This document shows, one piece after another, positions 1 through 7,490 of a DNA stretch of 64,000 nt. Position numbers and translations under genes: made by a program. Each line of letters begins with the position of its first letter. Position 1 is the first letter of the stretch. The DNA is taken from NCBI RefSeq assembly GCF_058153355.1, contig NZ_CM177019.1. One strand, written 5' to 3'. The notes below the pieces were generated by a model. That model searched no databases and had not been told where the DNA came from. It saw nothing but the letters and a program-made list of their open reading frames with translations.

Positions 1-424
1 GAATACCGATGGTATAAACGAACAGGATCAGGCCAAATTCCTGAATAACATGCAGCATATCGCTACTTAATGTCATCCCCGCCTGAGAAACAAAATGGCC
101 GACGATGATCCCACCAAACAGCACGCCGCCAATACCTAATCCTATGCCGCGAAATTTGACGTTGCCGATAAACAAACCGACGACTGCCACCAAAGCCAGA
201 ATACTGACCGTTAATGCTATATCACTCATCGTCCATTTCTCTTGAGATAACATTTTAATTGCTACGGATTATGGCTGAATCGGTGAAGCAGATTTGCCTT
301 ATAGCGCACATTATCACGGGAAAGAACGTGCCGAAATATCTTAAACAGGCGAAATTTAACGCTTTGTTGAGTAAGAAAGACAAAAAAAGCCCCACCAGAA
401 TGGTGGGGCAAAGAGAATAGCTAG

Positions 425-853
425 TTAGCTATTTAACGCGGGACGTTCGCTGATAGCGATACGCTGCGCTGCGATGGGTTCAGGCTCATTACGAATTAAA
501 TCAATATGCAGTAAACCGTTTACGAAGGTTGCACCAGAGACTTCCATATTTTCAGCCAGCGTAAAGCTCAGGCTAAATGGCTGATTCATAAGCCCTTGAT
601 GCAGCCATTTTTTCTCTTCTTTTGGCTGCTCCGGCGTGCCTTTTACGCTCAGGCGCGTACCTTCCAGTTGAATATCTAAATCTTCCTGACGAAAACCTGC
701 CAGCGCAAGGGTAATGCGGTAGTGGTTATCGTCGCTTTTCTCAATGTTGTACGGCGGGAAGCTCTGGCTTTCACCGGCGTTTTGCAGTGCGTTGGCCAGT
801 TTGTCAAAACCGATCCATTGACGCATCAGTGGGGATAAATCGAAGTTACGCAT
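425..853 (-). CDS. ibpB: small heat shock protein IbpB
   Basis: Track ORF 425..892; protein from [13 protein letters not shown] to the C-terminus matches IbpB (142 aa). Start trimmed to the ATG at 851-853. Confidence 0.9.
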
Positions 854-964
854 AGTCATTTCTCCTTCTAAGAAGCGAGTAAGTACCTGCAAATCCGAAG
901 ATTCGCATATGCTCCCTGACGGCGAGCATGGAGATATCAGGCCGCGCCAGGCGGCCTTAGGGAA

Positions 965-1378
965 TTAGTTGATTTCGATACGGCGCGGTTTTTTCGCTTC
1001 CGGAATCACACGTTCGAGATCGATATACAGCAAACCATTTACCAGGTTAGCACCACGAACATGAATGTTCTCAGCTAACTGGAATTTGCGTTCAAAGTTG
1101 CGTTCAGCGATGCCCTGGTACAGATAGGTGCGTTCTTTTTGTTCGTCGGCATGAGCACCTTTCACCACCAACAGATTATCCTGGGCGGTAATTTCCAGTT
1201 CGCTCTCAGCAAAACCAGCCACAGCGATAGCAATGCGGTAATGGTTTTCGTCTACCAGTTCAACGTTATACGGAGGGTAGCCGCCATTACTCTGGCTCTG
1301 GTTGTTTTCTAAGTGGTTAAACAAACGGTCAAATCCAATAGCAGAACGGTAAAGCGGGGATAAATCAAAGTTACGCAT
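965..1378 (-). CDS. ibpA: small heat shock protein IbpA
   Basis: 137 aa ORF, alpha-crystallin-type sHSP paralogous to the adjacent ibpB; length matches IbpA. Confidence 0.92.
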
Positions 1379-1480
1379 AATAAATAGCTCCTGAAATCAG
1401 CGAGAATGTAAGACCTTCCACAATGGACAGGTCAGGTAGCCAGAACACCCATCAGGCGCGTCCTCATCGGCTACGATGTA

Positions 1481-1509
1481 AAAATGGGTCTGGAAATGCA
1501 CTTTTCAAG
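1481..1509 (-). promoter_or_regulatory. sigma32 (heat shock) promoter upstream of ibpA
   Basis: Minus strand reads CTTGAAA, 14 nt spacer, CCCATTTT, matching the sigma32 -35/-10 consensus, about 100 nt upstream of the ibpA start. Confidence 0.55.
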
Positions 1510-1683
1510 CCTTATCAGCGGACTTTTTTTTGCAGTTTATGGTCTATTGCATAGACTGAGGGGGCAGCACGAAACGTTAAAGTGCGATAGCCGCCACAGT
1601 GCGACGTAATGATGATGTTATTTTCAGCAAGGGATCGCTATAACTCATCAGGCCAACACCCACGATCAACAGATGAATTTATT

Positions 1684-2016
1684 ATGATAAGAAATGTGTT
1701 GTTAGCGTTCATGATATGCAGCGGAATGACATTACTCGGAGGATGCTCCAGCGTGATGTCCCATACCGGGGGAAAAGAAGGAACGTATCCCGGCACCCGC
1801 GCCAGCGCCACCATGATTGGCGACGATGAAACCAACTGGGGCACTAAGTCGCTGGCGATTCTCGATATGCCGTTTACCGCTGTGATGGACACGCTTTTAC
1901 TGCCGTGGGATGTGTTCCGCAAAGACAGCTCGGTGCGCTCACGCGTTGAAAAAAGCGAAGCCAACGCGCAAGCCACCAATGCGGTTATTCCACCGGCCAG
2001 AATGCCTGATAACTGA
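1684..2016 (+). CDS. yidQ: small lipoprotein YidQ
   Basis: Internal ATG of track ORF 1609..2016 gives a 110 aa protein with a lipobox (LLGGC); position between ibpA and yidR as in K-12. Confidence 0.8.
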   Translation: MIRNVLLAFMICSGMTLLGGCSSVMSHTGGKEGTYPGTRASATMIGDDETNWGTKSLAILDMPFTAVMDTLLLPWDVFRKDSSVRSRVEKSEANAQATNAVIPPARMPDN

Positions 2017-5805: not shown

Positions 5806-5956
5806 TTACCACTCTGCTACGCTGTTATCTTCATGACGCCAGAGCGGATTACGCCAGTCCGGGGCATTTTTACTGAACTCAATGACTTTGGCTTCGTCGA
5901 TTTCTACGCCTAAGCCCGGTTTCGTTAATGGTTTAAAGAAGCCGCCGACCATGCTG
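5806..5956 (-). pseudogene. dgoD: 3' fragment of dgoD (D-galactonate dehydratase), truncated by IS4
   Basis: Last ~49 codons ([27 protein letters not shown]...NSVAEW) match the DgoD C-terminus; reading frame runs directly into the IS4 end at 5957. Confidence 0.7.
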
Positions 5957-7382
5957 TAATGCCAGTCAGTTAAGCAACTGACTGGCTCTTTTTCGGGGCT
6001 GTGGGGTATTTCCAGGGCCTCTCCTTTACCACTCTCGGGAAGGCCCTTTCCCTTCTTGTCGGTAATTTCACAAGTTGTCCCATACTTGCAAGATCGCGCA
6101 TCAGCTCCGGTATACGTCCCGGTGAAGCGCCCTGCAATGTCATCAGCATTCTCATCACCATTCCGCATGATTCTGAGAAACTCAGTTGATTCGGCCAGTA
6201 ACCTTTCAGATGTTCCGCCATTTTAATCATCTGATATCTCACCAGATTATAAGCCAGTAAGACACCCCACAGCTCTTGCTCCACAAGCTCCGGCTTTTTA
6301 CTTCTCAGCGTCAGCCTGCTCAGTTGCATCGTCTGTTTTATCTCCCTGTATCCCAGTTCGATTTCCCAGCGATGACTGTACAGATCCGCCATTTCTCCTC
6401 CGGGGAAGCGCATGGCGTCCGTCATCGACGTCAGCAGATGGCAGACTTTTCCTTTGCGCGTCACGGTCAGCAGGCGGGCTGTCACTTCATTTCCCAGTCC
6501 CGGCCACTTTTTTCGTGCCTGCGGGCTGGTTTTCAGCTTCACCAGATGATCGCCTTTACCCAGTTTTCTGATCTCTTCATATTGCGCTCCCTTTCTGAGA
6601 GGTATCATCCAGTGGCGGTGTTCTCCCGCCAGGCTCCAGGCATTTAACAGTCCCAGTGAGTAATAACCTTTATCCATTAACGTCAGAGTGTTATCGCCGG
6701 TTTGTTCTATAAGTTGCTCAGCAAGCTCATTTTCGCTGTTCTTCATCGTGCCGAAGGCTGCAGCCGTCAGCAGATGGCTGGTCAGTTCCATCTGGCAGAC
6801 CATTTTGACCTGCGGGTAGAGCGCCGGGTTCCCGGCATGTGTCTGGCGGGGGAAGGCTGCATCGTTCTCTGGTGTATCCGGTGTGCGCCAGAACACACCA
6901 TCGATGGCCAGCAGGGTCAGGCCGCACCAGTGCGGATGCGGCGTGGCGTTATGCCAGAGCTGCGCTGTTTTCGTGAACACGCGGCGGACAGCCTCACTTC
7001 CCAGGCGCTGGCGGGCCTGAATAACGGCACTGGGGGCAACGAAGGGGCGATTGCCCGGCAGCATGATGTCCAGGCGATTCACAATCTGGTGAAGAGGTTC
7101 TTTACGCTCAAGCGCCATGCCAACAATACACCAGACCATCATTTCGAGGGGAAGACGGCGCTTGCGTAGCGTTACAGTACCTGATTCGGCAAGGCAACGA
7201 GAGATGAGTTCGGGGTCGAGGTAATCCCCCAGAGAAGTCAGTGGGTTACGCAGAGAATCGTAACGGGATACCAGATCAAGAGCCTGTCCAATGTGCATAA
7301 AAAAATCCGGAAACAAGTGAGCGTTTCCGGATTCTTACACAGCCACTGGATCGGTCAACTGATCCTTAACTGATCGGCATTA
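5957..7382 (-). mobile_element. IS4 insertion sequence, complete (1426 bp)
   Basis: Terminal inverted repeats TAATGCCAGTCAGTTAAG (5957-5974) and reverse complement of TAATGCCGATCAGTTAAG (7365-7382); single transposase ORF inside; length equals canonical IS4. Confidence 0.92.
5970..7298 (-). CDS. insG: IS4 transposase
   Basis: 442 aa from [20 protein letters not shown] matches the IS4 transposase (DDE family); track ORF 5970..7316 has 6 extra N-terminal codons. Confidence 0.88.
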
Positions 7383-7490
7383 GGCCAAATCGGTCCCGTT
7401 TTTTTTCGCCTTTATTTCGGAGAAGTGTCCAGAGGGGCAAGGGGATTCGGGGGAGTATAATTTCGCCATTCAGAAAGAATGGAAAGAATA

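Follow-up and report, generated by a model that had tools for sequence, protein, structure and literature searches.

The segment at positions 1379-1510 (minus strand) of the DNA analysed here very probably exerts layered control over the small heat-shock gene ibpA, combining a sigma-32 promoter, a ROSE-like RNA thermometer in the leader and feedback by the IbpA protein itself. The window, by which the whole 64,000-nucleotide (64-kb) stretch is meant, belongs to contig NZ_CM177019.1 of RefSeq assembly GCF_058153355.1. The observations made on it comprise the promoter and leader motifs, membership in an Rfam family, the fold of the leader, its conservation and covariation across species, and the conservation of the promoter. 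The interpretation given in a preliminary description of this DNA, that of an ibpA heat-shock control region with a candidate RNA thermometer, is supported. The feature is already known and annotated in RefSeq, and the finding adds little: the region represents a textbook case of layered heat-shock control (sigma-32 promoter, RNA thermometer, chaperone feedback). It serves as a positive control for the recognition of regulatory regions from sequence alone.

The ibpA locus and its promoter

The region almost certainly comes from an E. coli/Shigella-type chromosome, in which it natively controls the ibpAB small-heat-shock operon. A stretch of 801 bases around the site finds a match of 98.5-99.5% identity in 5,417 of 5,426 complete E. 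coli genomes, once each and always on the chromosome, and the identity of the locus to E. coli ibpA/yidQ is 98.4-99.5%. The genes under the E. coli match are annotated as ibpA and yidQ, and there too RefSeq names a ROSE feature, which in the E. coli records examined is 73 nt long and lies at the homologous site. The open reading frame at 1378..965 matches the Pfam HSP20 family with 85.6 bits; its start codon, AUG, occupies 1378-1376 on the minus strand. The genes and promoter features are as follows.

965..1378, minus strand: ibpA coding sequence, open reading frame of 137 aa, HSP20/alpha-crystallin family
853..425, minus strand: ibpB, E. coli annotation mapped onto the window
..2018, minus strand: yidR, E. 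coli annotation mapped onto the window
1684..2016, plus strand: yidQ, E. coli annotation mapped onto the window
1509-1503, minus strand: sigma-32-type -35 element CTTGAAA, read directly, unique in the window and conserved
1502-1489, minus strand: promoter spacer of 14 nt, read directly, with G at 1499
1488-1481, minus strand: sigma-32-type -10 element CCCATTTT, from direct reading, pattern scan and conservation
1475-1471, minus strand: predicted transcription start zone, placed from published numbering and the usual spacing from the -10 element

The minus strand reads ...GGCTTGAAAAGTGCATTTCCAGACCCATTTTTACATCGTAGCC... across the region. The sigma-32 consensus (Cowing and Nonaka definitions) places CTTGAAA at -35 and CCCCATNT at -10, with about 13-15 nt between them; when aligned to this -10 consensus, the window sequence reads ACCCATTT at 1489-1482. 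The promoter is an exact sigma-32 match, CTTGAAA-N14-CCCATTT. Only one instance of the pattern CTTGAAA-N13-15-CCCATNT exists in the 64-kb window, and 100 dinucleotide-preserving shuffles contained none. The motif is also retained in orthologues: 84 of 91 Enterobacterales ibpA loci carry the CTTGAAA/CCCATNT pair upstream of the gene when at most one mismatch is allowed per element, the spacer being exactly 14 nt in 82 of these 84 promoters. The preliminary description had noted a sigma-32 -35/-10 match with a 14-nt spacer some 100 nt upstream of the ibpA start; the match was confirmed, its -10 element stopping 102-103 nt short of the AUG. At the orthologous loci the modal distance is 105 nt. 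The conservation of the promoter supports its sigma-32 reading. Moreover, genomic SELEX with the sigma-32 (RpoH) holoenzyme gave a peak in the K-12 ibpA/yidQ spacer (PMC5493296). A scan for sigma-70 promoters between 300 and 2100 returned nothing, as expected for a sigma-32 promoter, and is uninformative.

The position of the transcription start can be approached in two ways. The thermometer has been described as 102 nt long with a responsive part that begins near nt 72 (PMC3981793), and the published numbering (PMC2896394) fits G71 = G1401, which would place +1 at G1471. A start at this position would fall 10-11 nt past the -10 element, beyond the usual spacing. The common distance of about 6-8 nt after the -10 element would predict 1475-1474. 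Two K-12 transcription start datasets hold no entry for ibpA or for the expected coordinates, and the +1 is therefore still an inferred position.

The ROSE-like leader and its modelled temperature response

The leader predicted from these starts is 93-97 nt long and folds into three hairpins, which agrees with the two to four hairpins and the length from 60 to more than 100 nt given for ROSE-like elements (PMC10474464). Its features, all on the minus strand, are listed below.

1474-1436, minus strand: hairpin I (SL1), stable 5' hairpin, from folds, modelled at -18.5 kcal/mol at 37 C
1433-1412, minus strand: hairpin II (SL2), from the Rfam structure and folds, 5 + 4 bp with bulged G at 1428, modelled at -10.2 kcal/mol at 37 C
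1404-1388, minus strand: hairpin III (SL3), the Shine-Dalgarno hairpin CUC-G-CUG/AUUU/CAG-GAG, from Rfam and folds, modelled at -4.1 kcal/mol at 37 C
1403-1399, minus strand: ROSE anti-Shine-Dalgarno motif UCGCU, which fits U(U/C)GCU, with bulged G1401
1392-1388, minus strand: Shine-Dalgarno core AGGAG, nine nt upstream of the AUG, inside CAGGAGC (1393-1387)
1382, minus strand: variant U (G in K-12) between the Shine-Dalgarno and the AUG, from alignment and cmscan
1444-1372, minus strand: extent of the Rfam ROSE_2 match, covering hairpins II and III and the first codons, hairpin I lying outside the model

The Rfam family ROSE_2 (RF01832) scores 96.2 bits over 1444-1372 (gathering score 65, E = 1.4e-20). 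The match spans positions 1-73 of the 73-position model, is not truncated, and is the sole gathering-level Rfam match in the whole 64-kb window. The RefSeq feature, like the model, takes in hairpins II and III but not hairpin I. On the minus strand the leader matches only two Rfam families, ROSE_2 and, below threshold, ROSE_3 (19.8 bits; gathering score 43). The scan also gave weak matches to sR17 and to a Dianthovirus 3' UTR, which lie far under their gathering scores and were set aside as chance. The gene downstream of the element is a small heat-shock gene of the alpha-crystallin type, with the element in its 5' UTR; the assignment as a ROSE-like RNA thermometer of the ROSE_2 family is supported, and none of the observations contradicts it.

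Folding agrees with this assignment. The segment 1474-1376 folds at -34.1 kcal/mol compared with -25.2 +/- 3.3 kcal/mol for shuffled sequences (z = -2.69), 2 of 200 shuffles folding as well, and when the leader is folded from 1474 the minimum free energy (MFE) and centroid structures contain the same three hairpins. The graded model stabilities (I > II > III) are in line with the published description of SL1-SL3 as 'stable and unstable elements'. Within this fold AGGAG forms the 3' arm of the 6-bp, 3'-proximal hairpin III in the Rfam consensus, the MFE and the centroid alike. Its partner is CUCGCUG at 1404-1398, in which CUC pairs with GAG and CUG with CAG and G1401 is bulged, left unpaired by the Rfam consensus structure as well as by the MFE fold. 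The motif U(U/C)GCU is the defining signature of ROSE-like thermometers (PMC3669281). The preliminary description had recognised that the leader was long enough to fold and included the Shine-Dalgarno CAGGAGC, had suggested a ROSE-like thermometer, and had proposed an Rfam scan and RNA folding as checks. The full-length ROSE_2 match, the RefSeq ROSE feature at the homologous E. coli site and the sequestration of AGGAG in hairpin III all bear this out, and CUCGCUG is the Shine-Dalgarno partner that had been missed by eye.

The behaviour of hairpin III on warming was modelled. In a transcript ending at 1349, the modelled chance of finding AGGAG fully unpaired is 0.0014 at 25 C and 0.0106 at 42 C. 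Across constructs the modelled 42/25 C openness ratio varies with the 3' boundary, between 0.7 and 46, and on account of this swing the melting curves were dropped as evidence of thermosensing. Hairpin III stays closed in the MFE up to 50 C, and a Shine-Dalgarno less than 8% open in every modelled construct is the robust outcome. Deletion of G1401 in silico renders the Shine-Dalgarno about 10^4-fold less open and raises the modelled opening cost from about 3 to about 8-10 kcal/mol. This parallels the G71 deletion, which is reported to abolish thermosensing (PMC2896394). Such melting models do not separate thermometers from ordinary mRNAs (PMC2896394), and the modelling is consistent with thermometer function without counting as evidence for it. 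Experimental support comes from the K-12 allele, which differs from that of the window at 1382: a fusion of its ibpA leader to bgaB is induced 4-fold between 25 and 42 C (PMC3669281).

The comparative analysis was based on a DNA-pattern scan of one genome per bacterial species, which yielded 120 loci; 91 non-redundant Enterobacterales ibpA leaders and the window, 92 in all, were aligned with MAFFT without reference to structure, and the fold of the window was projected onto the alignment. The scan pattern fixed AGGAG and the codons for MRNFDL. Overall 83.5% of the paired cells can pair; sliding the 3' partners by 1-3 columns lowers this to 36-51%, and the observed covariation score was reached by none of 500 shuffles. 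In the 92 leaders the inner stem of hairpin I and the whole of hairpin II are 91.3% and 91.7% paired, and compensatory changes occur at 8 of 9 pairs in the former and at 6 of 9 in the latter. Support for the outer stem of hairpin I is weak in this alignment (33-48% paired), perhaps because a variable 5' end was misaligned, perhaps because the stem is truly not conserved. All 92 leaders keep the Shine-Dalgarno stem paired (100%), the invariance of the Shine-Dalgarno side being partly by construction since AGGAG and the first codons were fixed by the scan; it varies only by C-G to U.G, which corresponds to the C/U alternative within U(U/C)GCU. Comparative support is weak for the two outer Rfam pairs of hairpin III, which are 59% paired. 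All of the Enterobacterales leaders (91 of 91) and all of the other small heat-shock protein (sHSP) leaders (23 of 23) contain T[TC]GCT, the DNA form of the U(U/C)GCU motif.

Proposed IbpA feedback and rival readings of the leader

A sequence of events for the layered control can be proposed. Sigma-32 RNA polymerase would initiate from CTTGAAA-N14-CCCATTTT at about 1475-1471, and the resulting leader of 93-97 nt would form two stable hairpins (I and II) and one weak one (III). At low temperature, AGGAG would be paired with CUC-G-CUG in hairpin III and the 30S subunit would be unable to bind; on warming, the weak hairpin III would fray gradually and translation would begin. In a third layer, taken from published work, IbpA oligomers on the leader would repress translation until protein aggregates titrate IbpA away. 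For this lineage the sigma-32 dependence, the temperature-dependent translation, the IbpA binding and the exact +1 are carried over from the K-12 literature or deduced.

In published work, oligomers of IbpA occupy the ibpA leader and repress translation from it until aggregates titrate them away; for the K-12 leader, repression was observed in a reconstituted translation system and binding by filter binding (PMC10410725, PMC10474464). To bind its mRNA and repress itself, IbpA requires Arg93 and the IX(I/V) motif at its C-terminus (PMC10474464, PMC10410725). As read from its translation, the IbpA of the window keeps both R93 and the C-terminal I-E-I motif (...RRIEIN).

The sequence of hairpin II, as judged from the aligned leaders, is conserved far beyond the needs of pairing, and this is the one mildly new point. 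Of its two arms, CCUGUCC (1431-1425) and GGAAGG (1419-1414), the second is intact in 84 of the 91 Enterobacterales leaders, where shuffles would give about 3, and CUGUCC is intact in 83 of 91, where about 1.5 would be expected. Moreover, alphaproteobacterial sHSP leaders carry GGAAGG in 15 of 23 cases and CUGUCC in 14 of 23, with the median distances to the AUG unchanged at 41 and 52 nt. In hairpin I the apex GCC-N4-GGG is invariant among the 92 leaders and the rest of the stem covaries. Published mutants add a second line: SL1 and SL2 mutants are derepressed about equally whether the hairpin is weakened or strengthened. In a sample biased by the scan pattern, the motif conservation, together with this derepression, suggests sequence-specific recognition, possibly by IbpA. 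As a tentative proposal, hairpin II (1431-1414) and the apex of hairpin I could be sequence-specific recognition elements, most plausibly the operator of IbpA self-repression. If true, this would replace the view of hairpin II and the apex as merely passive stabilisers of the thermometer, and it would explain their near-invariance from Enterobacterales to Rhodobacteraceae despite freely covarying neighbour stems. It would also account for the loss of repression in both the weakened and the strengthened SL1/SL2 mutants, and for the way in which ibpB leaders, which have no such motifs, may respond differently. The conservation of hairpin II and the apex is the sole lead from this region that may be worth work, and it could locate the IbpA-binding site on the leader.

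Taken further, these observations lead to a rival reading of the whole leader, a possible one though clearly less probable than layered control: the leader would be mainly an IbpA operator, serving aggregation sensing, self-repression and regulated mRNA decay, with direct melting as a minor component. Such a role complements a thermometer. Repression of ibpA-leader reporters by purified IbpA in the reconstituted system and the R93 requirement for mRNA binding (PMC10410725, PMC10474464) argue for it, as do the intact R93 and IEI of the window protein, the equal derepression of weakened and strengthened SL1/SL2 mutants, the conservation of the hairpin II arms and hairpin I apex as sequence, and a modelled thermal response that is weak and boundary-dependent. 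However, the K-12 leader is thermoregulated in a heterologous reporter and is reported to lose this property when the bulged G is deleted (PMC3669281, PMC2896394). The published strengthened SL3 mutant gives no expression under any condition, which indicates that masking of the Shine-Dalgarno is itself decisive, and the ibpB leaders are also repressed by IbpA, yet 0 of 4 carry the hairpin II motifs. It is rather unlikely that hairpins I and II act mainly as 5' stabilisers against RNase E or 5'-end-dependent decay, or as folding chaperones of hairpin III, and take no part in sensing. This would suit the position of hairpin I, at or within 3 nt of the inferred 5' end, its high stability (-18.5 kcal/mol) and the free covariation of its stem, which points to selection on structure there and not on sequence. 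In Pseudomonas, ibpA thermometers work with the 3' hairpin alone, and upstream hairpins are thus not needed for sensing generally (PMC3669281); but a purely structural role leaves unexplained the near-invariant sequence of hairpin II and of the hairpin I apex. Both of these readings are compatible with layered control, from which they differ as matters of emphasis.

The remaining alternatives fare much worse. That the hairpins constitute a transcription attenuator or terminator, or that the leader encodes a small peptide, is highly improbable. Only the presence of stable hairpins speaks for it; the attenuator fails for want of a U-run after any of the three hairpins, and between 300 and 2100 the only terminator-like sites are at 409-389 and 709-696, with none in 1379-1510. 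As to a leader peptide, the minus-strand leader contains no AUG with a ribosome-binding site. Two open reading frames on the plus strand, 1423..1554 and 1484..1609, overlap the promoter on the opposite strand and have no support. The idea that the promoter match and folds are chance intergenic features is refuted and has a negligible probability. A z-score of about -2.7 for a single sequence is indeed not rare genome-wide, but the promoter pattern is absent from 100 of 100 shuffles and kept in 84 of 91 loci, the Rfam match has E = 1.4e-20, and the stems covary over 92 leaders.

The allele of the window and related thermometers

The element corresponds to the published E. coli ibpA thermometer (Waldminghaus, Gaubig, Klinkert and Narberhaus 2009, RNA Biol 6:455, as cited in PMC3669281). 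It shares with the K-12 version the locus, the three hairpins, the UCGCU/AGGAG pairing with its bulged G and the sigma-32 promoter, and differs from it in U1382 (G in K-12) and G1499 (T in K-12). From the -35 element to the AUG these are the only two positions at which the window differs from K-12, from O157 and from the closest E. coli hit; all three of these carry T at promoter-spacer position 1499. The 1499 and 1382 variants are both absent from the complete E. coli genomes: across the 5,417 that match, the highest identity over 221 nt is 99.1%. A G at 1499 is also seen in another Escherichia lineage, E. coli strain E69, and position 1382 is G, A or U depending on the genus.

In the window the U at 1382 breaks the outermost Rfam pair, C1408-G1382, which cmscan marks as non-canonical. 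A loosening of the thermometer by U1382 was considered and rejected: this pair is absent from the isolated-hairpin MFE of both alleles and is only 59% paired across genera. The C1408-G1382 pair of K-12 appears in a suboptimal fold 0.6 kcal/mol above the MFE, and among the constructs extending into the coding sequence none is modelled as more open with U than with G. Furthermore, the surrounding 3 kb are 1.2-1.6% divergent from K-12 and from the closest hit, a level at which two changes in the region amount to background. On the comparison and the modelling together, G1499 and U1382 are both probably neutral. As a lesser alternative, the private U1382 or G1499 may shift the set-point of the heat-shock response of this lineage.

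Related thermometers share the principle and differ in architecture. The founding ROSE element, ROSE1 of Bradyrhizobium japonicum hspA, is likewise a multi-hairpin sHSP leader with an imperfect U(U/C)GCU/Shine-Dalgarno pairing in the 3'-proximal hairpin and a critical bulged G (PMC3669281). It differs, however, in having four hairpins and in belonging to a separate Rfam family. Rhizobial ROSE genes are, in addition, transcribed from sigma-70-type promoters and are not known to use sigma-32 promoters. The short ROSE-like ibpA thermometers of Pseudomonas belong to the same gene family, have the UYGCU/Shine-Dalgarno hairpin and show a comparable 4-6-fold induction (PMC3669281), but comprise two hairpins in a leader of about 61-62 nt with G-C pairs flanking the Shine-Dalgarno core, whereas the leader of the window has three hairpins in 93-97 nt. 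The Salmonella agsA fourU element and the E. coli rpoH thermometer also control translation of heat-shock genes through melting around the ribosome-binding site, by architectures that are absent here: UUUU pairs with the Shine-Dalgarno in the former, and in rpoH a structure in the coding region masks the start codon (PMC10410725). A fourU thermometer was specifically considered and discarded, the criterion being four U residues paired with AGGA and the partner here being CUCGCUG. Within the same operon there is also the leader thermometer of ibpB (Gaubig et al. 2011, as cited in PMC3669281), which has the same CUC-G-CU.../...AGGAG pairing with a bulged G at 879-862 of the window; it differs in its upstream hairpins, has no CCUGUCC/GGAAGG hairpin and reaches only 15.2 bits with ROSE_2.

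Conserved sequence in the ibpA leader

In the ibpA leaders of Enterobacterales, the sequence itself, beyond the pairing, is kept in three segments of hairpins I and II:

1448-1457, minus strand: hairpin I apex, GCC-N4-GGG
1431-1425, minus strand: hairpin II arm CCUGUCC, within 1412-1433
1419-1414, minus strand: hairpin II arm GGAAGG, within 1412-1433

In a leader sample skewed by the pattern of the DNA scan (AGGAG followed by MRNFDL codons), 84 of the 91 ibpA leaders from Enterobacterales contain GGAAGG, where about 3 would be expected, and 83 contain CUGUCC; each motif also recurs in 14-15 of 23 alphaproteobacterial sHSP leaders, as far from the AUG as in Enterobacterales. Both are missing from all four ibpB leaders checked. 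Judged from this sequence conservation, the hairpin II arms and the hairpin I apex may constitute a recognition site for the IbpA protein.

At the DNA level, sHSP genes of Rhodobacteraceae and other Alphaproteobacteria (scan loci L018-L122, e.g. L043, L072 and L074) begin with the same codons as ibpA of Enterobacterales (MRNFDL...). Their leaders are also built alike, with UYGCU opposite AGGAGG coming after a CCUGUCC..GGAAGG hairpin. Such a likeness of both coding start and leader would imply either a very old co-inheritance of the two or horizontal transfer.

The ibpB leader and other hairpins of the operon

Further hairpins are found downstream in the ibpA-ibpB operon:

939-957, minus strand: 7-bp G+C-rich stem-loop AGGCCGC / CUGGC / GCGGCCU, immediately 3' of the ibpA stop codon
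847-919, minus strand: ibpB leader with its own ROSE-like Shine-Dalgarno hairpin (UCGCU 878-874, Shine-Dalgarno 867-862, AUG 853)
389-409, minus strand: strong intrinsic-terminator-like hairpin followed by TTTTTTT, immediately 3' of the ibpB stop codon

The ibpB leader hairpin pairs as CUC-G(876)-CUUC / UUA / GAAG-GAG. Its ROSE_2 score is just 15.2 bits (E = 3.9), so neither Rfam nor RefSeq annotates it. Gaubig (2011), as cited in PMC3669281, describes a thermometer for ibpB. In the mechanical ORF list, ibpB is a 155-aa ORF at 425..892 (minus strand) that opens with the TTG at 892 and would span the leader hairpins. This TTG is almost certainly unused; the start annotated in E. coli corresponds to the ATG at 853, for a protein of 142 aa.

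No U-run follows the stem-loop in the ibpA-ibpB spacer, which could serve in RNA processing or stability or act as a weak terminator. The hairpin after ibpB, with a 9-bp stem in which seven pairs are G-C, is presumably the operon terminator.

Synteny break and divergence from E. coli

Synteny is interrupted at a transposase gene:

5970..7316, minus strand: IS4-family transposase ORF (Pfam Nterm_IS4 and DDE_Tnp_1), within the interval of about 5950-7390

On one side lies ibpBA-yidQ-yidR through an MFS-transporter gene, to about 5.9 kb; on the other, from about 7.4 kb, the glpD/malT/rtc and malPQ/feoB/envZ region, which lies about 0.3 Mb away on the K-12 map. No complete E. coli genome spans this junction. 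The best match among 5,426 such genomes reaches only about 98.6-98.8% identity, over stretches of 15-20 kb, and around ibpA the best E. coli identity is 98.4-98.8%. Taken together, this low best identity and the IS-mediated rearrangement suggest that the window derives from an Escherichia lineage that is Shigella-like or otherwise not represented among these genomes.
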